This document shows, in pieces, positions 3,050-47,482 of a stretch of DNA of 64,000 nucleotides. The position numbers and the translations under genes were made by a program. Origin of the DNA: an uncultured Bacteroidia bacterium (GTDB lineage: Bacteria > Bacteroidota > Bacteroidia > Bacteroidales > Prolixibacteraceae); the NCBI GenBank assembly GCA_903834845.1, contig CAILKW010000142.1:18-64017 (forward strand). The letters are read 5' to 3'. Within the stretch, counting starts at the first letter, position 1, and the number at the start of each line of letters is the position of its first letter. Under the pieces are notes generated by a model. It did not search any database. It was not told where the DNA came from and saw only the letters and a program-made list of their open reading frames with translations.

Positions 3050-3195
3050 ATCAAAACGATAGGTAGCACAACCCAATCTGAATTACCTTGTGATAGGTAT
3101 CGGTGTTATTGGACTATCCATTGCCAGATAACTAAACAATAGATTTCCTGAGGCTAAAATTTCATTATTGAAAAAGTAACATGATGTGGCATAAT
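3050..3195 (+). pseudogene. Second copy of the decayed lhgO-like 5' fragment
   Basis: Aligns by eye to about 640-790, including the same premature-stop context (..GAAAAAGTAACATGATGTGGC vs ..GGAAAAGTAACATGATGTGGC). It is a direct repeat flanking the 1085-2949 TA patch. Confidence 0.6.
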
Positions 3196-3580
3196 AGAAA
3201 ATGGAAAAAGTAATCACTCAAAAAAAAAGTAACCCTGCATTCAATGCGATAATTCTTTTAGCTAACTTGGATGAATTAAGAAAACAAGCACGGCAAAAGA
3301 TCGCGTAATATTTGACAGTTGTGTTTTGATAAAAGCATTCAGGAGAGATGCTGCTGCAAAAAGCAATCTGAAAGTAATAATCCATCGTACAGCATATTCA
3401 GTAAATTGATTCAGTACCATATTCCCTGATTGCAGCAACCTCAATAATAACTAATTACCCTTTAATGACTTATAACAAAAAAAAATTTGAATTTATTGAA
3501 AGAATGATTTTTTACAAATAAGTGAGATTTTACAATAAAAATAACTCCATGTATCTCTGTGATAGTATAATCTGTGTTAA

Positions 3581-3745
3581 TATTTGACGTTTATAAATAT
3601 GTTTTAGATATAGTTAATTTATAACACTTTTTTACCATATTGGAGCATCATTAAAAGATTTGGGCAAAAAATGGTTCGCCTTCTCTAAAATCAACCTTGA
3701 TGTTGCAGAAATGTTAGCTAAATTGGAAAAGCCAAAATTATTTCA
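3581..3745 (+). pseudogene. ORF6N-family 3' remnant A (internally deleted)
   Basis: Matches the intact gene at about 6471-6505 and then 6728-6830 (..YHIGASLKDLGKKWFAFSKINLDVAEM.AKLEK). Shares the junction GTTAATTTATAACACTT with remnant B. Confidence 0.75.
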
Positions 3746-4044
3746 AAGACTTAATTATTAATAAATTAGGAAATTATAATCCTTGTGCAAGGTTGAAGTT
3801 ACAAATATCGGAGATTAAAATTCAATTACAAATAAAATAGTTTTGAAATTGAAATTTTCTTTATGCCTTTGTGCTTTTTAGATATTCCAGCGACCCAAAC
3901 AAATGGAATCCATAAGCCGTCCGGAATATAAACTTGATTACATTTTTCTTAAAAGTCTTCTCATAAACAAGTATAATCGTTGGCAGTTTTCAAAATAGGG
4001 TTTAATACCAGATTGCCGAGGAATATTATCGCAGACTTTATCAA

Positions 4045-5436
4045 ATGAAATCAGAACAAATCCAACAACTTATCAAGCAGGGAGAAGGTTTATCTGTTGA
4101 GTTTAAAAAAGCCAAAGATGAGCTTCCTTTAAATTTGTTTGAGACTGTGTGTGCATTTCTTAACAGAAATGGAGGTACCATCCTACTTGGCGTAAAAGAT
4201 GATATAACAATAGAAGGTGTAAACCCTCAAAAAGCAGATACTTTTTGCAAAAATATCGCAAATTTAAGTAACAATCCTCAAAAACTATTTCCCACATTTT
4301 TATTGGATGCCAGCATTGTTGAATATAATGGAAAAACTTTAATTTATATTTTAGTTCCCATCTCTTCGCAGGTGCATAAATGTAATAATAATATTTACGA
4401 CAGAAGTTCTGATGGAGATTTTGAAATATCATCAAGCGAACAGATCAAAAACCTTTACATTCGTAAGAGTACCTTGTATTCGGAAAACACTATCTACCCA
4501 TATTTATATGAATCTGATTTTGATAAAGGTATTGTTGAAAGAGTAAGAAAAATAATTAAGGTTCAGCGTCCCGAACATCCATGGAATGAACTTAATAATG
4601 ACGAATTTTTTAAAACCTCAGGTCTGTATCGAAAAGATTTCGCATCTGGATTAGAGGGATTTACTATGTCTGCACTATTACTTTTCGGAAAACCAGAAAC
4701 CATAAGTAGTGCTTTACCTCACTTTAAAATTGATGCTTTGCTAAGAGTTAAAGATATTGAGAGTTATGATGATCGCGAAAATATCCGTTGTAATTTAATT
4801 GATGCCCATGACAAACTAATGCAATTTGTTGCAAAGCATTTGCCAGACAAGTACTATCTCGAAGGCACACAACGAATTTCGCTAAGAGATACCATATTTA
4901 GAGAAATAGTAACAAATTTGTTAATCCATCGCGAATACACAAATGCATTCCCCACTACATTTATCATATATCTCGATCGTTTAATAGTTAAAAATGCAAA
5001 CAGGCCACATACTTATGGTCAATTGTTGCCAACAAAGTTTGAGCCGTTTCCAAAAAATCCTCATATTGCTCAGATTTTCACTCAAATGGGAAAATCGGAA
5101 GAGCTTGGAACAGGTATAAGAAAGGTGTACAAATATTCCAAGGCATATTCGGGAAGTGATGAAATTTTGTTTGAAGAAAATGATGTGTTTATAACTGTAG
5201 TGCCTCTCAATAATATTTCTCATTTTGATAATGTTACTGATAATGTTACTGATAAAAGATTACAAACCATATTAAATGAACTATCATTAAACTCGCAAAT
5301 CTCTTATGAACAACTTAGTAAAATTTTGGGTGTTGTTAGAATGACAATATATAGAGATATAGAAAAACTTAAAAAAGAAGGGAAAGTGAAACGAATAGGA
5401 TCAGCTAAAGCTGGCCATTGGTACGTAGTTGAATAG
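4045..5436 (+). CDS. AlbA_2 (Schlafen-type) domain / ATPase-like / wHTH protein, putative regulator or sensor
   Basis: N-terminal LSVEFKKAK ... AFLNRNGGTILLGVKDD (AlbA_2 signature). C-terminal wHTH-like MTIYRDIEKLKKEGKVKRIG. 463 aa. Confidence 0.7.
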   Translation: MKSEQIQQLIKQGEGLSVEFKKAKDELPLNLFETVCAFLNRNGGTILLGVKDDITIEGVNPQKADTFCKNIANLSNNPQKLFPTFLLDASIVEYNGKTLIYILVPISSQVHKCNNNIYDRSSDGDFEISSSEQIKNLYIRKSTLYSENTIYPYLYESDFDKGIVERVRKIIKVQRPEHPWNELNNDEFFKTSGLYRKDFASGLEGFTMSALLLFGKPETISSALPHFKIDALLRVKDIESYDDRENIRCNLIDAHDKLMQFVAKHLPDKYYLEGTQRISLRDTIFREIVTNLLIHREYTNAFPTTFIIYLDRLIVKNANRPHTYGQLLPTKFEPFPKNPHIAQIFTQMGKSEELGTGIRKVYKYSKAYSGSDEILFEENDVFITVVPLNNISHFDNVTDNVTDKRLQTILNELSLNSQISYEQLSKILGVVRMTIYRDIEKLKKEGKVKRIGSAKAGHWYVVE

Positions 5437-5502
5437 TCAGGATAATTTCAGGAATACTATCCTATAAAATATATAGACTTAAAAACAAATTTACCCCGTA
5501 AT

Positions 5503-5765
5503 GAAGGCATTTTTAATGATGGACAAATATTTGACGCTTATAAATATGTTTTAGATATAGTTAATTTATAACACTTTAATGCACAACATCCTAAATCGAG
5601 GTAAAAGTGTTTTCAAAATCGCACGATAGGTTTTTGATTATTGACAATAAAACAGTTTACCATATTGGAGCATCGTTAAAAGATTTGGGCAAAAAATGGT
5701 TCGCCTTCTCTAAAATCAACCTTGATGTTGCAGAAATGATAGCTAAATTGGAAAAGCAAAAATAA
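5503..5765 (+). pseudogene. ORF6N-family 3' remnant B
   Basis: Aligns to the intact gene from about 6445 to its stop, with an internal deletion (about 6505-6640). Ends ..AKLEKQK* like the intact copy. Confidence 0.8.
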
Positions 5766-5949
5766 CAAAAACACAACACCAATCTAAGAAAGCAAATCAG
5801 CTATAATATACAATTTTGTTATTAGAAGGCAATGGAAACTCAATTGAGTATTTCAGCAAAATGGAAAAAGAAACGCAATAATATATCTCTGGAACTGAAT
5901 GGGAGCTATCTCAAGTTTAGTTATATTTCTAATGTTTACTGTTCTTTAG

Positions 5950-6837
5950 ATGAAAGACTTACAGTTATACGATAATATTAAACGTAAAATTATCACGTTG
6001 CGCGGCACTGAAACAATTTTAGATAGAGATTTATCAGTAATGTATGGGGTTGAGACACGCGCATTAAAACAAGCAGTAAAGAGAAATATTACTCGCTTTC
6101 CGGATGACTTTATGTTTGAACTTAGAACAGATGAAATTGATTTTTTGGTATCACAATCTGTGATACCATCGAAGAGTTATTTTGGAGGTTCAAAACCTTA
6201 TGCTTTTACTGAACAGGGTGTTGCAATGCTTTCTTCAGTGTTAAATTCACAAACAGCTATTCAGGTTAGTATCCAAATAATGAAAGCTTTTGTGTTTGTG
6301 AGGTCTATCCTCAATGTAAATTACAATTTTTTCAAACAATTATCTAACTTAGAACAGAGACATACTGACCTTGAAATAAGCACTAACATTCGGTTTGACG
6401 AAGTTTTTAAGGCCATTTCTTCAAAAAAAAATTTGGCTGATCAAGGCATTTTTTACGATGGACAAATATTTGACGCTTATAAATTTGTTTCAGATATAGT
6501 TAAATCAGCAAATAGCACTATTGACTTGATTGACAATTATATAGACGAAAGTGTATTAACCTTACTTTCAAAAAGAAATATAACTGTAAAAGCGACCATT
6601 TATACCAATAAAATATCGAAGCAATTAACCTTAGATTTAGAACGCTTTAATGCTCAATACCCGAAAATCGAGGTAAAAGTGTTTTCCAAATCGCACGATA
6701 GGTTTTTGATTATTGACAATAAAACAGTTTACCATATTGGAGCATCATTAAAAGATTTAGGCAGAAAATGGTTCGCCTTCGCTAAAATCAACCTCGATGT
6801 TGCAGAAATGTCGGCTAAATTGGAAAGGCAAAAATAA
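5950..6837 (+). CDS. ORF6N (KilA-N related) DNA-binding domain protein, intact copy
   Basis: ITLRGTETILDRDLSVMYGVETRALKQAVKRNITRFPDDFMFEL...YAFTEQGVAMLSSVLNSQTAIQVSIQIMKAF is the classic ORF6N signature. The C-terminal half has HDRFLIIDNKTVYHIGASLKDLG. Confidence 0.8.
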   Translation: MKDLQLYDNIKRKIITLRGTETILDRDLSVMYGVETRALKQAVKRNITRFPDDFMFELRTDEIDFLVSQSVIPSKSYFGGSKPYAFTEQGVAMLSSVLNSQTAIQVSIQIMKAFVFVRSILNVNYNFFKQLSNLEQRHTDLEISTNIRFDEVFKAISSKKNLADQGIFYDGQIFDAYKFVSDIVKSANSTIDLIDNYIDESVLTLLSKRNITVKATIYTNKISKQLTLDLERFNAQYPKIEVKVFSKSHDRFLIIDNKTVYHIGASLKDLGRKWFAFAKINLDVAEMSAKLERQK

Positions 6838-6889
6838 CAAAAACACAGAACCCGTCAATGAAATAAATCCGGCTATGATACCTAAATTT

Positions 6890-7330
6890 GCAAGCAATAT
6901 GGTGAAATTACCAGCATATCCGACCATACAATGGATATTACTGTACCCGTAGCTTCCACGGTATATGGCTCAATGTTAATTGAAAAATACTTTACAACAG
7001 ATTGCACCATTTGTGGTACTGATTCATTTTTATTATCAAAATGACCAAGAATTTACAGACATGGTAAAGGCAGTCCTTGAAACAGAGGTAGCAATTGCAA
7101 AAATAGACAGTACGCTTACGGACAGAATGTTGAAAAGCTTTAAGTTTTCGCGATCGCTTTGTGTAGTTCATGAAATAAGTCAGGGAAGTTATCACTGAAA
7201 AGAATGTAAGAATCAATAGGTCAAGTTAAGGGAAGCATCAATAGTATTTTCCAAAGGTACTGGAGAAAATCGTAAGAGGATATGGAAAGAGGTACTCCAT
7301 TGAGAGATAGTGATATAAATTGCCCATAGA
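6890..7330 (+). pseudogene. Remnant of the 3' half of a pseI/neuB-type synthase gene
   Basis: Aligns by eye to 44915-45340 of the intact pseI: ..SDHTMDITVPVAS..IEKYF.. then MVKAVLETEVAIAKIDSTLTDRMLKSFKFSRSLCVV. It has several stops and frame changes. Confidence 0.65.
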
Positions 7331-7454
7331 GAAGAATTTGATTCTTTCATTTGCCAAGAATTTTAGGCAACTTCATTTAATTCCAAATCGTTGTTCCGAT
7401 TGATCCCCACTAAAAGATGAAACCATCACTAATAAATTAACATAAATAAATATC

Positions 7455-7664
7455 ATGACACTGACATTGGTAATTAAAAAAGGTAAAAATGGATACCTGA
7501 TTGGGCAGTTAAAAGAATTACCGGAAGTTTTTACGCAAGGACTTTCAGTTGAAGAGGTAAAAGAGAACATAGTTGATTCGTTAGAAATGTACCTCGAAGA
7601 TATGCGTGAGAAATATCAACCCGAAGGGGAAATGATACAGGAAAAGGAATTAATCTTCGCGTAA
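7455..7664 (+). CDS. hicB: HicB-family antitoxin
   Basis: 69 aa, LIGQLKELPEVFTQGLSVEEVKENIVDSLEMYLED. Lies 3 nt upstream of a HicA-like ORF. Confidence 0.7.
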   Translation: MTLTLVIKKGKNGYLIGQLKELPEVFTQGLSVEEVKENIVDSLEMYLEDMREKYQPEGEMIQEKELIFA

Positions 7665-7667
7665 TTC

Positions 7668-7856
7668 ATGAAGAGGAACAAATTTATCCAATATCTGAAT
7701 GAACATAACTGTGGTTTCATAAACCATGGAAGTAAACACGATAAATATATGAATCATGTCAACGGCAAAAGAACAAATATTCCGCGTCATCCCGACATTG
7801 ATGATGATCTTTGCCGGTTGATATGCAAACAACTAGAAATTCCTAAGCTGAAGTGA
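7668..7856 (+). CDS. hicA: HicA-family mRNA interferase toxin
   Basis: 62 aa, FINHGSKHDKYMNHVNGKRTNIPRHPDIDDDLCRLICKQLEIP matches the HicA pattern (GSKH...IPRH..i...l...I.kqL.I). Confidence 0.8.
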   Translation: MKRNKFIQYLNEHNCGFINHGSKHDKYMNHVNGKRTNIPRHPDIDDDLCRLICKQLEIPKLK

Positions 7857-8074
7857 CGAAAAACATCATTAAATACCTGCAAACTTTATCAACTTCATAG
7901 TTGAGCATTATTTAACTCTTCAAGAGTTTTTTCTTCTTTATTTACTCTTTCTCAAAAAAAAAATTCGTTTATACACAGTTTTCTCCTTTGGAGAAAAAAA
8001 CTTGAAAGGATTTCATAAGTAACTTAAATACAATTATGAGAGCATGTATTTTTTAACCAATATAATGCCAAATA

Positions 8075-8274
8075 ACCTTAGATTTAGAACGCTTTAATGC
8101 TCAATACCCGAAAATTGAGGTAAAAGTGTTTTCCAAATCGCATGATAGGTTTTTGATTATTGACAATAAAACAGTTTACCATATTGGAGCATCATTAAAA
8201 GATTTAGGCAAAAAATGGTTTGCACTCTCGAAAATCAACCTTGATGCCGCTGAGATGATAGCTAAATTAGAATA
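8075..8274 (+). pseudogene. ORF6N-family 3' remnant C
   Basis: Aligns to 6625-6837 of the intact gene (LDLERFNAQYPKIEVKVFSKSHDRFLIIDNKTVYHIGASLKDLGKKWFALSKINLDAAEMIAKLE*). It has no 5' part. Confidence 0.8.
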
Positions 8275-8345
8275 AAAACAAAAGATATTTAAAAAGGAAC
8301 ACCGATTTTGTCTAAACTAATCAAATAGATTTTTCAATTACCAAA

Positions 8346-9905
8346 ATGCAAACAATTATAAAACGCTTACCAATAGCTAAAACAGAAATTAAAGAATTAA
8401 TAGAAGGCAATTTTTGTTATGTTGATAAAACAAAATTTATAAAAGATTTGCTCGATGACGGTCATGGATATTACTTTTTATCTCGTCCACGTCGCTTTGG
8501 AAAATCTTTATTAATTGATACTATACGTGCCGCTTTTGAAGCTGAAAAAGAAATTTTCAATGGACTGTATATAGAAAATAATTGGGACTGGTCAATAAAA
8601 TATCCGGTTATTACGATTAGTTTTGGTGCCGGAACAGTTGACACTAATGATCAACTTGAAATACGACTAAATGAATTATTAAATAGAAATATTGATAATA
8701 ATAAAATAGAAATTAAAAATGTCTCTATTCCCGGCAGATTTGAAGAACTCATAAAAAAACTCTTCGATAAATTCAATTTGCCGGTAGTAATATTGATTGA
8801 CGAATACGACAAACCTATTCTTGATAATATCACCAATGAAAATGCAAATAAAATAAAAGAAGGACTAAGCAGTTTCTATTCTGTTTTAAAAGATGCAAGC
8901 AAATATCTTAAATTTGTTTTTTTAACAGGAGTTTCAAAATTCAGTAAAACAAACATTTTCAGCAAATTAAATAATATAACTGACATTTCGCTTGTTCCAA
9001 AATATGCAGATATTTGTGGTTATACACAAACCGACTTAGAAACTACCTTTGCGGATTATTTATACAATGTGGACTTGGAAAAAGTAAAAAATTGGTATGA
9101 TGGGTATAATTTTTTAGGAAGTAATTTATATAATCCGTATGACGTTTTATTGTTTTTGTGGGAAAAAAGATACCGTTGTTTTTGGTTCGAAACAGGTACA
9201 CCAACTTTTTTACTTGAACTTATAAAAAAACGAAATTACTATGTTCCCAATTTAGAAAGAATTCAAATCTCGGAATTTGAAATGGGTGAATTTGATATTA
9301 ACAATATTAAATTAGAGATCCTATTATATCAAACGGGCTATCTGACCATTGAGAAATTGGAAGAAATAAACGAAAACTATATTTATACCTTAAAAATACC
9401 CAATAAAGAAGTTAGAAAAGGACTTAACGAATATTTATTAACTGCTTTTTATGCTTCAGGAGTTAATGCTTACGAACGCACAAATGTTTCATTAATATTG
9501 AGCAAGGCATTAAACCAACATAATTTGGACGACCTAAAACTTGCATTTACAACTCTTTTTGCCGGAATACCAAATAATTGGTACACAAACAATAATATTG
9601 CTCAATACGAAGGCTTTTATTGCTCTTTATTTTATGCTTTTTTTGCTGCACTTGGTGTGGAGATAAAAAGCGAAGACACCACAAATAAGGGACGCATAGA
9701 TTTTACGATAATAACACAAACAGCTATATTTATTTTCGAAATAAAAATGAAACACATAAATAAAAAAGCTCTTGCACAAATAAGAGAACGGCAATACCAT
9801 CAAAAATATTTATCTGAAAAAAAAGATATTTATCTGATAGGTTTAGAATTTGACGAAACGGATAAAAATATTTCTACTTTTGAATATGAGAAGGTCATAG
9901 TATAA
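8346..9905 (+). CDS. AAA-ATPase-like protein with C-terminal PD-(D/E)XK (PDDEXK_9-type) domain
   Basis: N-terminus FCYVDKTKFIKDLL..YYFLSRPRRFGKSLLIDTI is the AAA-ATPase_like signature. C-terminus GRIDFTII..IFIFEIKMK gives D...E-x-K. Confidence 0.8.
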   Translation: MQTIIKRLPIAKTEIKELIEGNFCYVDKTKFIKDLLDDGHGYYFLSRPRRFGKSLLIDTIRAAFEAEKEIFNGLYIENNWDWSIKYPVITISFGAGTVDTNDQLEIRLNELLNRNIDNNKIEIKNVSIPGRFEELIKKLFDKFNLPVVILIDEYDKPILDNITNENANKIKEGLSSFYSVLKDASKYLKFVFLTGVSKFSKTNIFSKLNNITDISLVPKYADICGYTQTDLETTFADYLYNVDLEKVKNWYDGYNFLGSNLYNPYDVLLFLWEKRYRCFWFETGTPTFLLELIKKRNYYVPNLERIQISEFEMGEFDINNIKLEILLYQTGYLTIEKLEEINENYIYTLKIPNKEVRKGLNEYLLTAFYASGVNAYERTNVSLILSKALNQHNLDDLKLAFTTLFAGIPNNWYTNNNIAQYEGFYCSLFYAFFAALGVEIKSEDTTNKGRIDFTIITQTAIFIFEIKMKHINKKALAQIRERQYHQKYLSEKKDIYLIGLEFDETDKNISTFEYEKVIV

Positions 9906-9960
9906 AATATATAACAATATATTTCGATTTGGAAAGTGTAATAACTTTTTCGTTAGCATA

Positions 9961-10064
9961 AGAGAGCATCATTAAAAGATTTGGGCTAAAAATGGTTCGC
10001 CTTCTCTAAAATCAACCTTAATGTTGCAGAAATTTTATCAATATTAGAAAAACAAAACATTTAA
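9961..10064 (+). pseudogene. ORF6N-family 3' remnant D (shortest)
   Basis: GAGCATCATTAAAAGATTTGGGCTAAAAATGGTTCGCCTTCTCTAAAATCAACCTTAATGTTGCAGAAAT.. matches 6740-6815. It contains an internal stop. Confidence 0.7.
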
Positions 10065-10098
10065 TAATATCGGATGAATAAAACTAATTTCTCGGAGA

Positions 10099-11799
10099 AT
10101 GGTGCAGAACTATTCACGAAAGGAACAATGGGAAATATTGGATGCCAATGTAATGCCTTATCATTGGGAAGGTAAATCCAAATTTAACCACGACGCAAAA
10201 TTCCTAAGTTCATATTATGAGGAAATACTAATATTGGTGTCTTCTAAACTTAATGAGATTCATTGCACCAATAAAGGTCTTCGTTATTGGAGAATTTTTA
10301 TAGGGCCATGGTTGGCTTACTTTATTCAGATGCTGTTCGACAGATGGGAAAGTATTCATCATGCAATTGAAAAATAAGACTAAGGTGGAACTGTTGTATT
10401 GGAATTTGAGGAAGGCTCCTTCGTACCAAACGACATGAATGATTTTATTAAACTTTTTACTGAAGATAATTGGAATCATGAAATTTTCGGAATAATTCTT
10501 AAACAATATACAAAAACCAATTGCATTATTCAAAAACCATCGCACGTAGAATACACCGGTAGTTTATCCAAAAAACAATCAATAAAAAGATACACTAAAA
10601 AACAAACACGATCTTTTCTTTCTAAAATTGCATCAACATTTAAGAGGGATACCGATATGTTTTTAATAAACACTTATTTACCACTATATTTGGAAATATT
10701 GTTGCAGATTAAACTTGGACAGGTACCTCAGTTATGGAAATCCAACATCACACCTGTACGAACAAAACCAAATTTTAATTAACGGAATTGGGCTTTAAAG
10801 CATAATATGGATTCTCCTTTCGATGATTTTGTTAACCGTTTAATTCCAAAACATATTCCTGCAGTATTCTTAGAAGGATATAAAGCCATTGTCAAGCAAA
10901 CGGATGAATTATTGTGGCCCCAAAACCCAAAGGTTATCTACACAAGTAATGTATTATGGCATGATAGCGTTTCAATGGCATATACAGCCGAAAAAACTGA
11001 AAATGGAGCCGGACTTTTATATGGACAGCATGGCGGCTTTTACGGCTCGGCTCTTTACAGTTGGGCAGAAAGACATGAAATTGAAATAAGTGATAAGTAT
11101 TTAACATGGGGTTGGGATGAATTATTACAACCGAAAATAATTCCAACCGGTGTTTTAAAAACTGCCTCCTGGTACAATAATGCTGTTGATTTAAAAAAAA
11201 ATAAAACAAAAAAGCTCTTATTAGTACTGGTATCCACATCAATGTAAAGCTACAGAATTGATAGCGATCCTAAATCCGCAGAATTGATTCAACGTTTTGA
11301 GGAACACTTTCTATTTGTGAAATCGCTCCCAAAAACAATACAAAATCAAATCACTGTTCGGCTTCATAGAAATGAATATGGATGGTATATTGATAAACGG
11401 TGGAAAGATCAATTTTCAGATATTGTATTGGATGATGGTACTTCGAATATGGACCACCTTATGAGAAACAGCCGAATATTCGTCTATACATACAACTCAA
11501 CCGGATATTTAGAATCCTTATCTTGGAATATACCAACACTAATTTTTTGGAATTTAGATTCAAGTCCCCTGAGAGATGATGCAATGCCTTATTATAACAG
11601 GCTTAAAGAAGCAGGTATATTTCACCAAACCCCTCAATCTGCTGCTGCAAAGGTGGCTGAAATCTGGGATGTTGTACCAACATGGTGGAATCAACAGGAA
11701 ATTCAGGAGGCAAGAGAGTTATTCTGTTATCGCTTTGCACGTACCATTAGTAATCCTACGACAGTTCTAAAAAGTATTTTGCTGTCAATTAAAGAATGA
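10099..11799 (+). pseudogene. Putative polysaccharide-locus transferase (LIC12162-family-like, name from memory) inactivated by four in-frame TAA codons
   Basis: ORFs 10099..10377, 10399..10782, 10807..11247 and 11284..11799 are all in the same frame. They are separated only by TAA at 10375, 10381, 10780 and 11245, with no frameshift. Confidence 0.6.
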
Positions 11800-11958
11800 T
11801 AACACAATCGCTAAAAAACGTTATGTTGCCAAACTATCTGCAAATCTTGTGGGCATGGCGGTAGGTTTGGTTACAGCTACATAAACAAAAGTCGGTCTAT
11901 TGATAAACTTCGGAATAAAAAAGTTTTATAATACAAAAGATTCGTAAAATAAAGAAAA

Positions 11959-12022
11959 TGTCCATGTCCACAGATTACCACATAAAATAAAAAAATCTGT
12001 GCTACTCTGTGTAATCGGTGAC
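11959..12022. repeat. Palindromic word-repeat element (CACAGAT family), imperfect
   Basis: TGTCCACAGATTAC (11965-11978) ... A-run ... GTAATCGGTGACA (12010-12022). Same layout as 511-580. Confidence 0.55.
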
Positions 12023-12113
12023 AAAAAAAAGCCGACAATATATCCACCAACATAAAAAGCAACAAAGTTATAATAATATCGTTGCAAGAGTTATCAGAAA
12101 ATTAAATTACTAT

Positions 12114-13571
12114 ATGAAACAAATCGAAAAACTTAAATATTTTTTTAGTGAAAAAATAATTCTTCATCCAATTCTAATTGGAATTTTGTTCATAACAACG
12201 TCATTATATTCTAACTGGTTGATTTCTACAAGTAATAATAAATTATTTTTTATTGTATTGGTTATGGTTTTTTGTGTTGCTGTTAATAGACTATCCAGAT
12301 CTTTGGTTAGAAATAGAATAAAAGCCTCACTTATCGCAACTTTATTTATTACAATTAATCTCTATTACAAGTATATTGAAAAAATATTATCTGAATTTAG
12401 CCTCTTTAAATGGTTTATGGATTTATTTATAAATGAAAGGTTTGGATGGTTTATTTTTGCTTCAATATACATTAGTTTTTTAGCTGTAGCTTTTATAATT
12501 AGCAAAACAAGAAAAAAACTTTTCAGTCTCAATCTTTACCTAAATGTGGTAATTAGCTTGTTTTTAGCTTACGAAGTCGGTAGTATAATCTTTACAAAGC
12601 CCTTCAATGTTGAATTAGTTAATACACCAAAACAGCAAGAAAAAAAATTAATTAATTCCTTGATTCTGGATAAACCCAACGTTTACTTTATAATATTAGA
12701 TGCTTACACAAGCTCTGAAAGTTTAAAAAAGTATTGGGCCTATGACAATTCTTCTTTCGAAAATTCACTCACTAAAATGGGCTTTTTCGTTACACATACC
12801 AGTAAATCAGATTATGATTTTACACCTTACTGCATGGCATCATACTTAAATATGTCTTTAATAAAAGTTTATAACATCCAATTGTTATCTCAAAGATGGA
12901 ATTGGCAAAAAGACCACGTTCTTAAATTAATAGAGAATAGTAGCCTTATTCAGCAATTTGTATCTTCAGGTTACAAATTTATTAATTATTCCATATTCAA
13001 TATCGGAAACGACAAAGCACTTTTTTATACTCCCTTTCCAAAAGGGAATGAACCCATAGCTGTTTTTTTTCAACAAACAATTTATCCATATATCAATTAT
13101 AAAATTAAACGATTCACTCAGTCCTCAGAACAATTCCCATCCTATCCAAATCTAAAATTTTTCAAGCTATTAAGTGAAAAATACCCATTGAAAAGTGAAG
13201 TTCCAAAGTTCTATTATGCGCATATTTTAATGCCACACCAGCCATTTGAATATGATGAAAACGGAAACAAAATGAGTTATGAATACAGTACTTTAATAAA
13301 AAATGATAGTTATCTAAAACTATTACGCTATACAAATTCAATGGTTATTAAAACAATACAAAATATCCTGACTAATGAAAAGAAGAAGCCTTTTATAATT
13401 ATTCAAGGTGATCACGGTTATCGTTTTTTAGAAAATGTTGATACTAAAATTCAAAAAACTGAAGGTCATACAATTTTCAGTGCTTATCTCTACCCCAACG
13501 AACTTAAGATACAACTAAATGATTCAATTAAACCAATCGAGGCACTTTCATTATTATTTGATGAGAAATGA
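12114..13571 (+). CDS. Membrane-anchored sulfatase-like (alkaline-phosphatase superfamily) transferase/hydrolase
   Basis: Multi-TM N-terminal half followed by FIILDAYTSSESL, LMPHQPF and IIIQGDHGYRF core motifs. Start at ATG 12114 is preferred over the word-repeat-derived upstream extension. Confidence 0.65.
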   Translation: MKQIEKLKYFFSEKIILHPILIGILFITTSLYSNWLISTSNNKLFFIVLVMVFCVAVNRLSRSLVRNRIKASLIATLFITINLYYKYIEKILSEFSLFKWFMDLFINERFGWFIFASIYISFLAVAFIISKTRKKLFSLNLYLNVVISLFLAYEVGSIIFTKPFNVELVNTPKQQEKKLINSLILDKPNVYFIILDAYTSSESLKKYWAYDNSSFENSLTKMGFFVTHTSKSDYDFTPYCMASYLNMSLIKVYNIQLLSQRWNWQKDHVLKLIENSSLIQQFVSSGYKFINYSIFNIGNDKALFYTPFPKGNEPIAVFFQQTIYPYINYKIKRFTQSSEQFPSYPNLKFFKLLSEKYPLKSEVPKFYYAHILMPHQPFEYDENGNKMSYEYSTLIKNDSYLKLLRYTNSMVIKTIQNILTNEKKKPFIIIQGDHGYRFLENVDTKIQKTEGHTIFSAYLYPNELKIQLNDSIKPIEALSLLFDEK

Positions 13572-13624
13572 TCACAAAATTTACTTACCATAAATTATTA
13601 AAAACAAATATAATTTAAAATCCA

Positions 13625-14398
13625 ATGAAAGTTCTGATCTTAGCAGGAGGCCTTGGCTCACGGCTCTCAGAAGAAACAACCCTAAGGCCAAAACCAATGG
13701 TAGAAATTGGTGGAAAACCAATTCTTTGGCACATTATGAAAATATATTCACATTTTGGGTATAACGAATTTATCATTCTGTGTGGTTACAAAGGATATAT
13801 GATCAAAGAATTTTTCTCCCATTATTTTCTTCATACATCCGATATGACAATTGACATGACAACCAATACAATTACCCATCATAATAATCATTGCGAACCA
13901 TGGAAAGTAACCCTTGTGGATACAGGGCTCGACACAATGACTGGTGGGCGTATTAAAAAGGTACGGGATTATATTGGTAACGTACCCTTTATGCTTACTT
14001 ATGGTGATGGTGTTGGAGATGTTGATATTTCTAAGCTGGTTAAATATCATCAATCTCACGGTAAAGCAATAACAATGACCGCTGTACAACCTGAAGGAAG
14101 GTATGGTTCTTTGGTTCTTAACGAAAATGAAGAGGTAACCTCATTTCAGGAAAAACCAAAGGGAGATGGTGCATGGATCAATGCAGGTTATTTTGTTTGC
14201 CAACCTGAAGTATTCGACTATATTCCAGATGGAGATCAAATTATTTTTGAACGAGAACCTTTGGAAGGTTTAGCAAGTGCCTGTCAACTTCAAGCTTATA
14301 AACATGACGGATTATGGAAACCCATGGATACCCAACGCGACAAAAGCCAATTGGAAGATTTGATTGAAAAAGGGAAAGCGCCCTGGATACGCTGGTAG
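13625..14398 (+). CDS. rfbF: Glucose-1-phosphate cytidylyltransferase
   Basis: MKVLILAGGLGSRLSEETTLRPKPMVEIGGKPILWHIMKIYS.. at 257 aa is the typical RfbF/DdhA signature and length. Confidence 0.9.
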   Translation: MKVLILAGGLGSRLSEETTLRPKPMVEIGGKPILWHIMKIYSHFGYNEFIILCGYKGYMIKEFFSHYFLHTSDMTIDMTTNTITHHNNHCEPWKVTLVDTGLDTMTGGRIKKVRDYIGNVPFMLTYGDGVGDVDISKLVKYHQSHGKAITMTAVQPEGRYGSLVLNENEEVTSFQEKPKGDGAWINAGYFVCQPEVFDYIPDGDQIIFEREPLEGLASACQLQAYKHDGLWKPMDTQRDKSQLEDLIEKGKAPWIRW

Positions 14399-14445
14399 CG
14401 ATTACGAATTACACGAATTAAAACGAATTTTACGAACAAATTACA
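14399..14445. repeat. ACGAATT/AATTCGT word array (spacer after rfbF)
   Basis: ATTACGAATTACACGAATTAAAACGAATTTTACGAAC holds three ACGAATT words at 9-11 nt spacing. It is followed by CACAG-type words and an 8-bp hairpin (AAAGCACT..AGTGCTTT, about 14491-14520). Confidence 0.7.
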
Positions 14446-14550
14446 CAGTGTCACACAGAAAAAAAAGCACCGTGTCACACAATGTAGTTAAAAAGCACTC
14501 AGTTAAACTCAGTGCTTTCACTGAGATACCTTGTTCAACGAACACTTAAC

Positions 14551-15627
14551 ATGGAAAATCTTTTTGATAGAATATTTACCAATCGCAAGGTTTTGATCAC
14601 AGGGCATACCGGTTTTAAAGGATCGTGGTTGTGTTTATTATTGAATAAATTGGGTGCTGATGTTTTTGGTTATGCGTTAGACCCTCCTACTAACCCTAGT
14701 TTGTTCGTGGAAGCAAAAATTAACGAAATCATGACTTCCTTTATCGGCGATATTCGTGATTACGAAAATCTATTCAAAGTCATTCAGCAAGTTCAACCTG
14801 AAATTGTTATCCACATGGCTGCGCAACCGTTGGTTAGGGAATCATACAAGAAACCTGTTGAAACCTATGCGATCAATGTGATGGGAACAGTACACTTTCT
14901 TGAAGCATGTCGGCATACAAAAAGTGTAAAGGCCATTGTAAATGTAACAACCGACAAATGTTACGCAAATAAAGAGTGGCATTGGGGTTATCGTGAAAAT
15001 GAGCCAATGGGAGGTTACGATCCTTATTCAAACAGCAAAGGATGTTCGGAGCTTGTAACTTCTTCGTACCGCAATTCGTATTTTAATCCTGCAAAATACT
15101 CCGAACATGGTGTGGCTGTCGCTTCAGCTCGTGCAGGTAATGTTATTGGAGGTGGCGATTGGGCTAATGACAGACTTATCCCAGATTTTATCCGCTCCAT
15201 ATCCCAAGGTGAAAAAGTAAAAATCCGCAGTCCTTTTGCAATTCGTCCATGGCAACATGTATTAGAACCTTTAACAGGCTACCTTACTTTAGCTGCAAAA
15301 CTATTTACCGAAGGCGTAAAATATGCCGAGGGGTGGAACTTCGGACCCGATGATGAAGATGCCAAAAACGTGGAGTGGATCACATTAACAATCTGCGAAC
15401 TTTGGGGTGAGGGTGCCTCTTTCAGCATCGACAAAGACCCTCAGCTCCACGAGGCCAATTACCTGAAACTAGACTGTTCAAAATCTAAAGCCGAACTGGA
15501 TTGGACTCCCAAATGGAACATCCAAACAACTTTACAATCCATCGTAGAGTGGAACAAAGCTTATTTGCGTGGTGAAAACATGCGTACAGTATCGGAATAC
15601 CAAATAAATCAATATTATAACAATTAA
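14551..15627 (+). CDS. rfbG: CDP-glucose 4,6-dehydratase
   Basis: VLITGHTGFKGSWL Rossmann start, YSNSKGCSE (YxxxK) and about 358 aa. Start at ATG 14551 (MENLFDR). Confidence 0.9.
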   Translation: MENLFDRIFTNRKVLITGHTGFKGSWLCLLLNKLGADVFGYALDPPTNPSLFVEAKINEIMTSFIGDIRDYENLFKVIQQVQPEIVIHMAAQPLVRESYKKPVETYAINVMGTVHFLEACRHTKSVKAIVNVTTDKCYANKEWHWGYRENEPMGGYDPYSNSKGCSELVTSSYRNSYFNPAKYSEHGVAVASARAGNVIGGGDWANDRLIPDFIRSISQGEKVKIRSPFAIRPWQHVLEPLTGYLTLAAKLFTEGVKYAEGWNFGPDDEDAKNVEWITLTICELWGEGASFSIDKDPQLHEANYLKLDCSKSKAELDWTPKWNIQTTLQSIVEWNKAYLRGENMRTVSEYQINQYYNN

Positions 15628-15686
15628 AAACGAACCACTTCGTGTAATTCGTAATAATTCGTGTAATTCGTATAATTCGTAACAAT
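15628..15686. repeat. AATTCGT word array
   Basis: Four AATTCGT words start at 15646, 15656, 15665 and 15674, a 9-10 nt phasing. They lie immediately upstream of the antitoxin-like ORF. Confidence 0.8.
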
Positions 15687-15941
15687 ATGTTGGCAATAAA
15701 AGCAAATTATCATAATGGCATAATTACTTTTCTCGAAGCCATGCCAGAGAAAGTAAGGAATGCACGGTTGACCATTGTAGTGGAACCGGAGGAACAGGAC
15801 AATAGTTTTATCCCATCACAAGATTTTAAAAGTACACAAATTGATAGTGAAGTTGAATTTGAAGCCATGGGACTGAGTGCGCTTTTTGATGACGAAAACG
15901 ATAAAAACATTAATTGGGAGGATTATTTTGGACTCAAATAA
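15687..15941 (+). CDS. Small antitoxin-like protein (DUF104-like N-terminus)
   Basis: 84 aa, MLAIKANYHNGIITFLEAMPEKVRNARLTIVVEPE resembles the i.A.Y.NG.i..LE.. antitoxin family, with an acidic tail. Lies upstream of and overlapping a MazF-like module. Confidence 0.5.
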   Translation: MLAIKANYHNGIITFLEAMPEKVRNARLTIVVEPEEQDNSFIPSQDFKSTQIDSEVEFEAMGLSALFDDENDKNINWEDYFGLK

Positions 15942-16284
15942 ATTCAACATCGGCGAAATTGTCTTGATCGATTTCCCCTATTCTAATCTAAAAGGCTCTA
16001 AATATAGGCCTGCTGTTATCATTGGAGTAACTGACATTCAGAACGATTTAATCGTTGCATTTGTTACATCAGAAATTGAAAATTATAGTTGGAGCGAATA
16101 TGCTGTTAAGTTCAGCCAGGCACATTTACAATCTGGTACAATTAAACAAGAAAGTATCATACGCTGCGACAAAATGATCACCATCAGTCCGCAACGTATT
16201 TCACTCAGAAAAGTTGGGACATTAAAGAAAACAAAAACTGCAGAAGTTCTCCGGAAATTGTCTCGAATCAGTGTCAATGGGGTA
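15877..16284 (+). CDS. MazF/PemK-like toxin module with no stop codon, continuing in frame into rfbH
   Basis: NIGEIVLIDFPYSNLKGSKYRPAVIIGV... is the MazF/PemK N-terminal signature. Possible starts are ATG 15877, ATG 15889 and TTG 15928. The frame runs uninterrupted into ATG 16285. Confidence 0.6.
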
Positions 16285-17550
16285 ATGGAAACAATTCATG
16301 CCAAACAAGACTTTATCCCTGGCAAATCACGGGTTAATTATGCCGGACGTGTATTCGATGAGAAAGAAATCAACAACGCTGTCAATGCTTCTCTTGATTT
16401 CTGGCTCACTGAAGGACGTTTCTCTGAAGAATTCTCCGAAAAGATTGCAGAATTTATAGGTGTGGAACATGTATTATTGACCAATTCGGGTTCTTCAGCC
16501 AATTTGCTTGCGTTCTCGGCACTGACTTCCGAAAAACTTGGCGACAAACGATTACGTCCGGGAGATGAAGTGGTATCAGTTGCAGCCGGGTTTCCTGCTA
16601 CCGTTACGCCGATTATCCAAAATGGTTTGGTTCCTGTGTTTGTTGATGTTGAGATACCTACCTACAATATTGATGTAGAGATGATGCGTAAAGCGATCAC
16701 GCTTAAAACCAGATGTATCTTTATTGCACATACCTTGGGGAATCCATTCAATATCGATGCCGTAATGCAATTGGCCAAAGAACACGATTTGTGGGTAATC
16801 GAAGACAATTGCGATGCATTTGGAAGTGAGTACAACGGTAAGAAGACGGGATCTTTTGCTCATCTTTCAACCATATCCTTCTATCCTGCCCATCATATCA
16901 CCACAGGCGAAGGAGGTGCAATTTGTACAAATGATCCTCAATTGGCTCAATTAGTTCGTGCTTTCCGCGACTGGGGACGTGATTGCTATTGTGCAGGCGG
17001 TGAAAACAACACTTGCGGCAAACGTTTCTCGCAGTTGTTTGGAAACCTTCCTTTCGGATTCGATCATAAATATGTTTATTCCGAAATTGGTTATAACCTA
17101 AAGATGACAGATATACAAGCTGCAATTGGTGTAGAACAAATCGAAAAACTACCATATTTCTGCGAACGCCGGAAAGCAAATTTTCAGGAATGGGAACGAA
17201 TTTTCACGAAGTATCATGATTACTTTATTTTGCCGAAAGCAACCGAACGAGCCGATCCGGCATGGTTTGCATTTATTGTAACTCTTAAGGAAACCGCTCC
17301 TTTTAAACGTGATGATTTAACAGGTCACCTAAATGCAAAGCTAATTGAAACCCGTAATCTGTTTGCAGGCAACATCACCAAACAACCAGGCTTCATGGGC
17401 AAAAACTGGCGCATTGCCGATCATTTGAATAATACTGACTACATAATGAATAACACTTTCTTCCTTGGTACATACCCTGGACTAACGAAAGATATGTTTG
17501 ATTATGCTGAAGGCGTACTCGATTCATTTGTTCAAGATTTCACGAATTAG
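16285..17550 (+). CDS. rfbH: CDP-6-deoxy-D-xylo-4-hexulose 3-dehydrase (E1, RfbH/DdhC)
   Basis: From METIHAKQDFIPGKSRVNYAGRVFDEKEINNAVNASLDFWLTEGRF.. for about 421 aa. DegT-type PLP/PMP fold with the RfbH-typical N-terminus. It is part of the composite ORF 15877..17550. Confidence 0.85.
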   Translation: METIHAKQDFIPGKSRVNYAGRVFDEKEINNAVNASLDFWLTEGRFSEEFSEKIAEFIGVEHVLLTNSGSSANLLAFSALTSEKLGDKRLRPGDEVVSVAAGFPATVTPIIQNGLVPVFVDVEIPTYNIDVEMMRKAITLKTRCIFIAHTLGNPFNIDAVMQLAKEHDLWVIEDNCDAFGSEYNGKKTGSFAHLSTISFYPAHHITTGEGGAICTNDPQLAQLVRAFRDWGRDCYCAGGENNTCGKRFSQLFGNLPFGFDHKYVYSEIGYNLKMTDIQAAIGVEQIEKLPYFCERRKANFQEWERIFTKYHDYFILPKATERADPAWFAFIVTLKETAPFKRDDLTGHLNAKLIETRNLFAGNITKQPGFMGKNWRIADHLNNTDYIMNNTFFLGTYPGLTKDMFDYAEGVLDSFVQDFTN

Positions 17551-17570
17551 GACGAATTACACGAATCGAA

Positions 17571-17945
17571 ATGCCAGAGATTATCTACAAAGAAGAAAGC
17601 TACAAGATCATAGGGGCATGTATGGAAGTCCATAAAAAGCTTGGTTGTGGGTTTCTTGAAAGTGTATATTCTGAGGCACTCGAAATAGAATTTAAGAAGT
17701 CCGAAATACCCTACGAGCGTGAAAAAAAATTGCCCGTATTTTATGGAGACGTTCCGCTTAAAAAGTATTTCAAAGCCGACTTCGTTTGTTATAATTCAAT
17801 CATCCTTGAACTGAAGGCAACAAAGTTTATTATTGAAGCTGATCACCGTCAAACGGTTAATAATGTAAAAGCCACCAAATTTCAACTTGGTTTGCTTATC
17901 AATTTCGGTACTCCATCATTGACCTATAAACGAATCGTCAATTAG
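17571..17945 (+). CDS. GxxExxY protein (PD-(D/E)XK-like small nuclease-fold family)
   Basis: 124 aa with GCGFLESVY (G-x-x-E-x-x-Y) and D...ELK (ADFVCYNSIILELKA). Flanked on both sides by ACGAATT/AATTCGT words. Confidence 0.8.
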   Translation: MPEIIYKEESYKIIGACMEVHKKLGCGFLESVYSEALEIEFKKSEIPYEREKKLPVFYGDVPLKKYFKADFVCYNSIILELKATKFIIEADHRQTVNNVKATKFQLGLLINFGTPSLTYKRIVN

Positions 17946-17978
17946 TCTAATTCGTGTTCGTGTTATTCGTTTAAATTC

Positions 17979-18671
17979 ATGAAATCAATGCTACAAAAAA
18001 AATATAAATCAGCTGTTGTATCCGTAATAAATCCATTCTCAGGTATCTATACTTTGGAAATTAAATCCTTGGGAAACAAATTCAAATACTCGCCTGGCCA
18101 ATTTCTTCACATTGCGATTGATTCAGATTACGATGGTACCAGCCAATGGCCCGATTCCCGATGTTTCTCGATGCAAAGCAATCCCGACGAAGAAACCATC
18201 CGGATTACTTATGCGGTAAAGGGATCATTTACCAAACAGATGGAACAAAACTTTAAAGTAGGTTCCGAAGTCTGGTTGAAACTACCTTATGGCGATTTGT
18301 TTTCCCAGCCACACAACAAAATTAATACTGTATTTATTGCTGGCGGCACAGGCATCACCCCGTTCCTCTCCCTTTTTACACACGAATCTTTCAACGAATA
18401 CCTCAACCCAAAAATTTACCTCGGGTTTCGTTCCCAGTCTTACAACATATATCAGGATGAACTCGTCAGTTCGAGAAATTCGTCAAAATTCGTGAAATTG
18501 TATAACGAGGACACCGATGGAATTATTGACATCCAAAGCATCTTCAACGAGAATGGCCCGGAACCCAATTATTTTATCTCCGGACCACCGGCAATGATTA
18601 AAGCCTTCAAAAACACGCTGATCGGTAAAAAAGTTCCAGCAGGAAATATACTTACCGATGATTGGGAGTAA
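17979..18671 (+). CDS. FNR-like FAD/NAD(P)-binding oxidoreductase, candidate E3 reductase for RfbH (lacks a ferredoxin domain)
   Basis: 230 aa. FLHIAIDS..RCFSM (FAD-binding RxxS-like) and VFIAGGTGITPFLS (NAD-binding). Sits directly after rfbH. Confidence 0.7.
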   Translation: MKSMLQKKYKSAVVSVINPFSGIYTLEIKSLGNKFKYSPGQFLHIAIDSDYDGTSQWPDSRCFSMQSNPDEETIRITYAVKGSFTKQMEQNFKVGSEVWLKLPYGDLFSQPHNKINTVFIAGGTGITPFLSLFTHESFNEYLNPKIYLGFRSQSYNIYQDELVSSRNSSKFVKLYNEDTDGIIDIQSIFNENGPEPNYFISGPPAMIKAFKNTLIGKKVPAGNILTDDWE

Positions 18672-18747
18672 CATTCGTGAAATTCATCAAAGTTCATTGA
18701 TTTTTTTTCCCTTGATAAGGGCAACAATTCTCAATTTATTATTTCAC

Positions 18748-18755
18748 TAACTTTG
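18748..18755 (+). promoter_or_regulatory. Bacteroidota -7 promoter-like motif TAnnTTTG
   Basis: TAACTTTG lies 22 nt upstream of ATG 18777. The motif is short and the DNA is AT-rich, so a chance match is quite possible. Confidence 0.25.
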
Positions 18756-18776
18756 TAAAACAACAATGAAACCAGA

Positions 18777-19097
18777 ATGACGAGCAGTGACAGAGAAATA
18801 TTAAGCCAAAAACTGATTTCATGCAAAAGCTTTTGGTCTTTTAAAATACCACAGGAAATCCCTGATGATATTTTAATTGAAAAAACTCTGATATACCTTG
18901 ATCTGGTGGATATTAATGTATTGTTTAAACTATTTTCATCAAAAAAGATAAAACATATTTGGCGGTCCCGTGTCGTGATTCAGGACGATTATTACCATAC
19001 GCTAAATAAACTGCTTGCATGGATGTATTTTGAAATAAAAAACCCAGACCGTTACATAAAAATAACAATTCGTAACCACATTAACCATCTTTCATGA
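18777..19097 (+). CDS. Small protein upstream of an AbiEii-type NTase, putative cognate antitoxin
   Basis: 106 aa. SFWSFKIPQEIPDDILIEKTLIYLDLVDINVLFKLF resembles the LFWDvd..ld...fIIeRvL.yG family that I recall upstream of such NTases. The stop overlaps the next start (ATGA). Confidence 0.45.
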   Translation: MTSSDREILSQKLISCKSFWSFKIPQEIPDDILIEKTLIYLDLVDINVLFKLFSSKKIKHIWRSRVVIQDDYYHTLNKLLAWMYFEIKNPDRYIKITIRNHINHLS

Positions 19098-19741: not shown

Positions 19742-19784
19742 TTTGTAAAAATATATTACCTGGGTACAAATACTGGTAGTATAG

Positions 19785-19918
19785 AGATTTTTCATAGCAA
19801 GGCATCTGCTATCAACTACTTTATCTACGGCCCTCCGGCAATGATTAAAGCCTTTAAAAACACGCTGATCGGTAAAAAAGTTCCATCAGAAAATATTCTG
19901 ACCGACGATTGGGAGTAA
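19785..19918 (+). pseudogene. Reductase 3' remnant 1 (copy of the end of 17979..18671)
   Basis: ..NYFIYGPPAMIKAFKNTLIGKKVPSENILTDDWE* compares with the intact ..NYFISGPPAMIKAFKNTLIGKKVPAGNILTDDWE*. It has no 5' part. Confidence 0.85.
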
Positions 19919-19976
19919 CTTTCGAGTAATTCGTCTAAATTCGTGAAATCCGCAAAAATGTAATTCGTATTTTCTA

Positions 19977-20990: not shown

Positions 20991-20992
20991 TC

Positions 20993-21502: not shown

Positions 21503-21552
21503 TTCGTGCAATTCGTGCAATTCGTTTTAATTCGTGTAATTCGTATTTTATA
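21503..21552. repeat. AATTCGT word array
   Basis: AATTCGTGCAATTCGTGCAATTCGTTTTAATTCGTGTAATTCGTATTTTATAAC carries five phased words. The same 3' junction (..GTAATTCGTATTTTATAACAAAACAAATAC) recurs at 22684-22712. Confidence 0.8.
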
Positions 21553-47465: not shown

Positions 47466-47482
47466 ATTTGTTACAACAAAAT

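Follow-up and report, generated by a model that had tools for sequence, protein, structure and literature searches.

How defence genes enter and leave genomic islands that carry no obvious mobile elements is an open question. Here we approach it through a locus that, together with its variants in sister strains, forms an unusually readable record. The locus lies in a 64,000-nucleotide (nt) stretch of contig CAILKW010000142.1 from an uncultured Prolixibacteraceae bacterium, which we call the window and whose numbering is used throughout. In its first part, at approximately 3579-10064, truncated copies of the 3′ end of a single gene alternate with small genes of defence or toxin–antitoxin type, and every feature is on the + strand. 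The gene in question, hereafter ORF6N-PLD, encodes a protein with an ORF6N DNA-binding domain and a C-terminal PLD-like domain, and is present once in intact form. How did the ends of one gene come to separate unrelated cargo? We favour, with moderate confidence, serial insertion of cassettes with long target duplication, followed by turnover of the cassettes through recombination between the repeats.

Truncated 3′ ends of one gene separate unrelated cargo

Repeat finding, multiple alignment and BLAST place four 5′-truncated copies of the ORF6N-PLD 3′ end in the window, named A, B, C and D in the order in which they occur (Table 1); their positions agree to within a few bases with those in an earlier note on this DNA. 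The copies are 85-97% identical to the intact gene or to each other, and blastn E-values of 1e-28 to 3e-82 exclude chance similarity. All four are co-oriented with the intact gene and reach its natural stop codon. The 5′ break differs from copy to copy, corresponding to intact positions ~6465 in A, 6440 in B, 6599-6622 in C and 6726-6740 in D, so that the repeats measure 100-265 nt and their 5′ ends vary by up to ~300 nt.

Remnant A is built of three blocks, 3579-3617, 3618-3629 and 3631-~3745, which equal intact 6465-6503, 6637-6648 and 6728-6837. Remnant B consists of two, 5501-5564 and 5565-5765 (intact 6440-6503 and 6637-6837), followed by ~50 nt of native 3′ flank. C corresponds to intact 6599/6622-6825 (91% identity across 206 nt) and D to intact ~6726/6740-6837 (~90% across 94 nt). 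At the protein level, tblastn aligns A to aa (amino acids) 261-295 at 86% identity, and B to aa 240-295 at 93% and aa 154-184 at 66%. The tips of the remnants all encode the same conserved PLD-like motif, YHIGASLKDLGKKWFAFSK. As for decay, D lies at the greatest distance from the intact gene, is shorter than the other remnants and contains a nonsense codon.

Between the copies lie segments of 1.6-2.3 kb with different cargo, as the earlier note had described from the sequence and as Pfam and tblastn matches bear out: an AlbA_2 gene between A and B; the intact ORF6N-PLD gene, a pseI-type remnant and HicBA between B and C; and an AAA-ATPase/PD-(D/E)XK gene between C and D. Local alignment beyond the 5′ breaks of A, B, C and D yields just short matches, none significant individually. 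The 5′ half of an additional ORF6N copy was found nowhere else in the window, which speaks against the possibility that the copies are independent paralogues, each with its own 5′ half. The alignments support the view that A-D are decayed 3′ ends of one lineage-specific gene family; the next closest homologue shares just ~71% protein identity. Short ORFs of 52 and 49 codons occur in B and C. The remnants themselves are regarded as non-functional.

Upstream of D, a 17-nt block at 9931-9947 (GAAAGTGTAATAACTTT) matches intact 6546-6562 at 15/17 positions, with a z of ~2.4 that is not significant alone. If this block is real, D may also be internally deleted like A and B.

A broken copy was itself duplicated, and the copies are mosaic

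One clue to the history of the array is a junction common to A and B. In both remnants GATATAGTTAA is joined directly to TTTATAACACTT, and the junction string GATATAGTTAATTTATAACACTT, for which the earlier note had claimed identity, is present in both. It corresponds to the loss of intact 6504-6636, a frameshifting deletion of 133 nt. A has lost a further 78 nt that B retains, and the two are 97% identical across 108 nt. Because A and B have one exact deletion junction, a copy that was already broken must have been duplicated, as the earlier note had concluded.

Remnant C has a different signature. Compared with the intact gene, it has 2/138 differences upstream of intact 6764 and 15/62 downstream (Fisher p = 5e-7); in window terms, identity to the intact gene is 98.5% over 8073-8210 and ~76% in the tail from 8211. 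Synonymous codon changes break likewise, at 2/45 before the break and 6/20 after it, so differing constraint is not the explanation. The intact gene also has an unusual tail: over its last 75 nt it carries private states, at 6764, 6781, 6795, 6812-13 and 6827, relative to all four remnants, a pattern to be expected had the last insertion replaced the tail. Most of the changes that set the intact tail apart from all remnants and from the consensus of the family, across 6764-6834, are non-synonymous (K>R, S>A, I/L>S, K>R). They may reflect a foreign allele, relaxed constraint or selection.

Alignment of the five copies, which the earlier note had expected to give the order of duplication events, does resolve shared from private deletions, but the order itself is not derivable. 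No reliable duplication tree can be built because the copies are mosaic and because, over the final 100 nt, the nearest homologue (P0004, L094) has diverged too far; rooting of a copy tree with it was rejected.

Table 1 Features of the ORF6N-PLD array and its borders, in window positions.
Feature	Position	Strand	Description	Basis
Palindromic element, right half	3540-3578	+	Adjoins the 5′ break of A; like the right arm of 511-580 and 11960-12022	
Remnant A	3579-3745	+	ORF6N-PLD 3′ end with the shared 133-nt and a private 78-nt deletion	
Cargo 1	4045-5436	+	AlbA_2 (Schlafen-like) + HATPase_c_4 + HTH protein, 463 aa	Pfam
Remnant B	5501-5765, similarity to ~5818	+	Intact 6440-6503 joined to 6637-6837	
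ORF6N-PLD gene	5950-6837	+	Intact, 295 aa; PDC-S05-type candidate defence gene	
NeuB/PseI-like 3′ remnant	6886-7307	+	aa 190-325 of 337, frameshifted	tblastn
Cargo 2	7455-7664 and 7668-7856	+	HicB-like antitoxin and HicA toxin	
Remnant C	~8052/8069-8275	+	Mosaic 3′ end	
Cargo 3	8346-9905	+	AAA-ATPase_like + PD-(D/E)XK (PDDEXK_9) protein, 519 aa	Pfam
Remnant D	~9950/9964-10064	+	Shortest and most decayed 3′ end; in-frame AAA>TAA stop	
LIC12162-family transferase gene	10099-11799	+	Broken into four open reading frames (ORFs); consecutive profile segments 24-585	NCBIfam TIGR04331

Sister strains recombine at the repeats

Contigs from other samples and assemblers reproduce the arrangement of the window at 99.8-99.98% identity. 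One of them (L002) covers 3760-16000, three (L003, L004 and L005) cover parts, and another (L093) contains the junction from A into the AlbA_2 cassette. Because the order is reproduced across samples and assemblers, the array is not an artefact of one assembly.

Further contigs carry rearranged forms. Two (L006 and L001) are recombinants between A and B (AxB) that lack AlbA_2 and crossed over somewhere between the diagnostic sites 3650 and 3714. An AxC recombinant (L092), joined within the first 31 nt of homology, lacks AlbA_2, B, ORF6N and HicBA. L001 additionally has a 1072-nt tandem duplication of the intergenic region and ORF6N, in which the first gene copy carries a B-type 3′ end (IxB, where I is the intact gene); this duplication could be an assembly-graph loop. 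In contig hLMQPPBb, whose haplotype is likewise AlbA_2-less, a HepT-to-ORF6N spacing of 1521 nt equals, by gene spacing, the upstream flank plus a B-type remnant without the private deletion of A, and could represent either a crossover in the 5′ block or the pre-insertion (ancestral) state. The comparison with related genomes that the earlier note proposed returns deletions (AxB and AxC) and a duplication (IxB): repeat-mediated recombination is ongoing in this population.

The pattern recurs at other genes of the window

Other genes of the window have such remnants too. The earlier note had seen the same logic in a reductase array, and this holds: at 17979-23123, inside the sugar operon, an intact NAD_binding_1-type gene (17979-18671) is followed by three 5′-truncated 3′ remnants (19661-19942, 21549-21971 and 22696-23123). 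The cargo consists of a 106-aa ORF with AbiEii, an AAA_21 gene with a 169-aa ORF, and DUF2281 with PIN. Likewise, the last 56 codons of a GATase (HisH-like) gene at 54765-55409 recur at 58170-58337, just before a HisF-like gene, and the interval contains a DUF3990 gene (56132-56620) and an AlbA_2+HATPase_c_4 gene (56997-58145), the latter 68% identical in protein sequence to another AlbA_2 gene at 50243-51385.

At two loci, gene starts recur in place of gene ends. In a mirror-image case, the first 41-49 codons of a Polysacc_synt_2 gene (62182-63198) recur upstream at 59586-59705 and 60828-60971, and these 5′ remnants flank an AlbA_2 gene (59748-60437) and a HigB toxin/HTH_3 pair (61057-61974). 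At 643-766 and 3067-3190, 85%-identical 5′ ends of a decayed FAD-oxidoreductase-like gene (with a GxGxxG N-terminus) flank a HicB-like gene and two nucleotidyltransferase genes, the second with HepT (MNT/HepT); an intact copy of this oxidoreductase gene is absent from the window. The pattern thus uses at least five unrelated anchor sequences in the window.

The gene family tells the same story from the other side. Among 80 genome loci with homologues of ORF6N-PLD, 8 have a second match within 10 kb on either side, mostly full-length tandem copies or N-terminal fragments, and none of the 80 has a 3′-remnant array around the homologue. The array as a general property of the gene family was rejected on this basis, and because the cargo is not conserved next to homologues. 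The array pattern is a property of the locus, not of the gene family.

Three side observations concern this part of the window. The N-terminal region of a GT4 glycosyltransferase occurs in three copies, from 46755, 48976 and 51426 (62-87% protein identity; region 46755-52643); a 287-aa ORF and the AlbA_2 gene at 50243-51385 lie between them, and an Asn_synthase-like region is joined to the third copy in a fusion. Short tandem AATTCGTG(N)AATTCGT repeats stand at gene boundaries over 14402-23130 and are missing from the ORF6N array; the sites are at 14.40, 15.64-15.68, 17.54-17.56, 17.95, 18.48, 18.67, 19.93, 21.50-21.54, 21.95, 22.66 and 23.12 kb, and some of them are the ends of reductase remnants. 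Finally, a 557-aa ORF at 15877-17550 has both PemK_toxin and DegT aminotransferase matches and appears in sister contigs as 553 aa after an 84-aa ORF. It could be a toxin–antitoxin module fused to, or overlapping, a sugar aminotransferase gene.

How the array may have formed

For the insertion mechanism and the order of events we infer the following course. Small defence or toxin–antitoxin cassettes would have inserted repeatedly just downstream of the resident ORF6N-PLD gene, each insertion duplicating 100-260 nt of the gene 3′ end in a sequential displacement of the type known as insertion with long target duplication. Incoming DNA may pair with the gene 3′ end by homology while its other end is joined illegitimately; alternatively, a circular molecule of repeat plus cargo may integrate by a single crossover. 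By either route, recombination within the 3′ end would bring in a new tail and cargo; the outcome would be a complete gene followed by the new cargo, with the former 3′ end pushed downstream as a 5′-truncated remnant. Such a course could account for the order intact gene, NeuB remnant with HicBA, C, AAA-ATPase, D and LIC12162, in which D would be the oldest remnant. A and B would come from a second, upstream tandem copy that had already lost the 133 nt and its 5′ part before AlbA_2 arrived, and insertion of the AlbA_2 cassette would have duplicated this broken copy. Descent from a former upstream tandem copy is suggested because B precedes the native intergenic region and, after it, the intact gene. 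The direct repeats would then become substrates for ordinary homologous recombination, allowing cassettes to be deleted, duplicated or reshuffled.

Several points weigh against this account. The AlbA_2-less haplotypes are most simply explained, and probably arose, as secondary deletions; in L001 and L006 this is the probable origin because the private deletion of A is kept. Among contigs with a HepT or LIC12162 fragment, a true empty-site allele (ORF6N adjoining LIC12162, or the order ORF6N, AAA-ATPase, D) was not recovered, an empty site for the HicBA or AAA cassettes was not found, and each contig that reaches LIC12162 has the AAA-ATPase cassette upstream. All variants derive from short-read metagenome assemblies, in which repeats can produce chimeric joins. 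The middle block of C, which is nearly identical to the intact gene, could have been patched in by gene conversion and not be a duplicated target, and the mostly non-synonymous changes in the intact tail are unlike those of a foreign functional allele. On its 5′ side B reaches 25 nt beyond A, in agreement with an origin from a circle or a donor, or with trimming of A at a later stage, and not with a simple target duplication. The survey of 80 loci, which lacks comparable remnant arrays, indicates that the process is specific to this lineage and does not belong to the gene family as such.

Could the array instead be a decayed tandem family, in which full-length ORF6N paralogues, each with its own neighbour, lost their 5′ parts independently and no insertion duplicated a target? 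Full-length tandem pairs of the family do exist, in other genomes (L010, L040 and L083) and in sister contig L001, and the native intergenic region between B and the intact gene means that at least one tandem pair existed here. This explanation nevertheless needs four independent deletions, each sparing the final 100-260 nt, and further sets of such deletions for the reductase, the GATase and the other anchors. It leaves the sharp identity break between C and the intact gene unexplained, the junction of A and B still requires duplication of a broken copy, and surviving 5′ halves are nowhere in the window. We consider it unlikely.

A second explanation would dispense with imported cassettes, and have resident genes shuffled by unequal crossing-over, gene conversion and illegitimate deletion. 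Sister-strain contigs give direct evidence of unequal crossing-over and deletion between repeats, and the mosaic blocks fit gene conversion. Recombination between existing repeats, however, cannot create the first duplication or put unrelated cargo between the copies. The tails of C and D differ by 15-25% from the others, with many synonymous changes, which indicates distinct alleles, and the NeuB remnant is just 40-56% identical to the NeuB gene of the window (44339-45352; tblastn E = 1.5e-20), so it must come from another locus or genome. Purely internal rearrangement appears improbable to us.

A further reading is that the locus shows a homology-driven, integrase-free cassette platform. Small modules of a gene-end fragment plus a defence or toxin–antitoxin gene would be excised as circles through recombination between repeats, move from strain to strain and integrate again at any gene with the same fragment, as a RecA-dependent functional analogue of the integron that builds defence islands inside polysaccharide operons. 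The breaks might be supplied by the nuclease-like ORF6N-PLD protein or by the cargo nucleases; Kobayashi's group has proposed that restriction enzymes supply the DNA breaks that start insertion. The NeuB fragment that travels with HicBA would, on such a platform, be a trace of this traffic. We regard this reading as speculative and give it little weight.

A site-specific cassette system, whether integron-like or an integrase island that targets a gene 3′ end with an att site in the repeat, is very improbable and largely refuted. Its attraction is topological, since intact target, cargo and displaced co-oriented target ends also characterize integrase-driven tandem islands at tRNA or gene 3′ ends. 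Yet Pfam finds no integrase, transposase or recombinase family among the genes called over the interval that starts 3 kb before the window and closes with it at 64 kb. The repeats have different lengths and 5′ ends. Folding of their DNA, for both strands of B and of the intact gene and for the + strand of C and D, gives stabilities no higher than those of shuffled sequences (z -0.6 to +1.2), so an attC-like repeat structure was rejected. The junctions share no motif or target-site duplication beyond A/T-rich chance matches, promoter and terminator scans stay at the level of shuffles, and an RNA-gene or tRNA target was rejected, as the window has no Rfam or tRNA matches. Different and unrelated anchors, varying repeat lengths and the absence of a junction motif and of hairpin potential speak for a mechanism anchored by homology and against a site-specific one. 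Just as improbable is a chimera of strain variants collapsed or mis-joined at the repeat: the assemblies are short-read throughout and many contigs end exactly at repeats, a sign that assemblers were confused there, but independent samples and assemblers return the same order, the junction from A into AlbA_2 recurs in L093, and the copies differ by 3-15% and are distinguishable at k = 141.

The resident gene

The intact gene encodes a Pfam ORF6N domain at aa 13-97. Its AlphaFold (AF2) model, with a mean predicted local distance difference test (pLDDT) score of 79, consists of the ORF6N domain, a long helix and a C-terminal PLD-like domain, with pLDDT of ~78-92 (mostly ~90) across aa 171-290. 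Foldseek matches the C-terminal half to PLD folds, including NucT (6ehi, E = 8.5e-6), Zucchini, PLD3 and the PLD-like domain of TrmBL2, and the domain is thus predicted to adopt a PLD fold. The catalytic motif of the PLD superfamily is HxK(x)4D. The invariant family motif here is H249-D250-R251-(x)4-D256 ... G264-A-S-x-K268 (HDRFLIID...GASLKDLG), which has HxR and not HxK.

Over its full length the protein matches the PADLOC PDC-S05 model PDLC04869 (E = 8.2e-110, with aa 8-292 aligned to positions 15-301 of the 306 in the profile). In E. coli, plating of T7 and T5 fell approximately 1000-fold in the presence of a PDC-S05 representative (bioRxiv 10.1101/2024.09.26.614923). That tested representative is described with a RhuM domain, whereas the subfamily here is of ORF6N type; the present gene is a candidate anti-phage gene. 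In the metagenome loci that we examined, RhuM-type and ORF6N-type proteins have the C-terminal PLD-like domain in common.

More than 8000 family members, at 50-63% identity, are spread over many bacterial phyla and archaea, and no relative closer than 61% protein identity occurs in GTDB representative genomes. A phage origin was rejected, with partial matches in 7/50,697 phage records and none of full length. Relatives of RhuM-PLD type that are truncated or have internal deletions turn up in unrelated metagenome contigs, within type I restriction-modification operons, where they lie between hsdR and hsdS or adjoin Fic and hsdS (L110, 802-1126; L116, 1-424). Decayed copies of the family thus occur elsewhere.

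Cargo and surroundings of the array

The cargo is of defence or toxin–antitoxin type, and its role in defence is putative. HicA matches Pfam HicA_toxin with E = 8.5e-6 and 26.2 bits, just under the curated cut-off of 27 bits; the HicB-like partner is assigned by its position, as it matches no family. The NeuB 3′ remnant stands directly upstream of HicBA. This suggests that the HicBA cassette sat earlier behind a neuB-like gene, with the NeuB remnant a fossil anchor travelling along.

The region was described in the earlier note as lying outside the sugar operon, which is true only in part, since the array adjoins the broken LIC12162 transferase gene and contains the NeuB 3′ remnant. LIC12162 is presumably the original downstream neighbour of the ORF6N-PLD gene. 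The lengths of its ORFs differ between sister-strain contigs (for example 227, 278 and 290 aa), so its frameshifts vary within the population. Downstream of it, polysaccharide genes continue co-oriented for ~50 kb; upstream of the array lie AbiEii genes, a HicB-like gene and two nucleotidyltransferase genes, of which one has a HepT-like partner. The window has 35.5% GC, and its genes have A-rich leaders without Shine-Dalgarno sequences, features that point to Bacteroidota.

A palindromic intergenic element rich in CCACAGAT/ATCTGTGG, with 29-nt arms and a 12-nt spacer, occurs at 511-580, 11960-12022 and ~63738, and as a half copy at 3540-3578. It sits at island and operon boundaries. The end of the half copy (...TCTGTGGACAAAATATT) resembles an ORF6N sequence (...GATGGACAAATATTTGACG), and its border with A is a possible microhomology junction.

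Comparison with known systems

Integrons resemble the array in their co-oriented small cassettes, many of them toxin–antitoxin genes, with a recurring separator and with newer cassettes nearest the insertion point. Here, in contrast, intI, attI and attC were not found, the separator is a gene fragment without hairpin potential, and recombination is based on homology. Integrase islands at gene 3′ ends differ in that the cargo here comes without an integrase and the repeat length is not fixed. Membership in either class was rejected because these defining features are missing.

Effector–immunity arrays of the Vibrio cholerae type VI secretion system come closer in mechanism. Successive insertions there displace older genes downstream, and in one step of the reconstruction the 3′ end of an effector gene, and homology-facilitated illegitimate recombination without an integrase has been proposed (Kirchberger et al. 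2017, PMC5361080). The anchor in those arrays is a conserved region upstream of the effector–immunity module and the retained cargo consists of immunity genes, whereas several operon genes serve as anchors here.

For Rhs arrays, C-terminal displacement has been proposed to occur by homologous recombination in the conserved part of the gene, through a circular intermediate (Jackson et al. 2009, PMC2935791). An intact gene followed by co-oriented, 5′-truncated 3′ fragments is what Rhs/CdiA loci have in common with C and D, and with the reductase array. A and B, however, lie upstream and need a second, now dead, anchor copy. The Rhs/CdiA tips are moreover variable toxin domains, each with an immunity gene, whereas the tips here are the same conserved end and the cargo is separate and unrelated.

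The closest parallel is found among restriction-modification genes without mobile-element genes, which are flanked by target copies of 30-420 bp, often at a gene 3′ end, and for which a life cycle of insertion, repeat-mediated amplification and release has been proposed (Furuta, Abe & Kobayashi 2010, PMC2853133). As in those cases, direct repeats of more than 30 bp flank each cargo (here 100-265 nt at 85-97% identity), and the inserts are shorter than 20 kb and free of mobile-element genes (here segments of 1.6-2.3 kb). Insertion with long target duplication is reportedly also credited to Nobusato et al. 2000. The differences lie in the cargo, which is AlbA_2, HicBA, AAA-ATPase/PD-(D/E)XK, AbiEii, PIN and comparable genes in place of restriction-modification genes, and in the history of the target, which was hit repeatedly to leave four remnants, with a broken repeat duplicated anew and no clean empty-site allele found. 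On the favoured account, the array is a serial form of a known insertion process and not a new kind of system. It extends insertion with long target duplication from restriction-modification genes to other defence and toxin–antitoxin cargo and to serial arrays, shows a polysaccharide operon colonised by such cassettes behind ordinary genes, and reveals duplicated gene ends being used in a natural population to delete or amplify cassettes.

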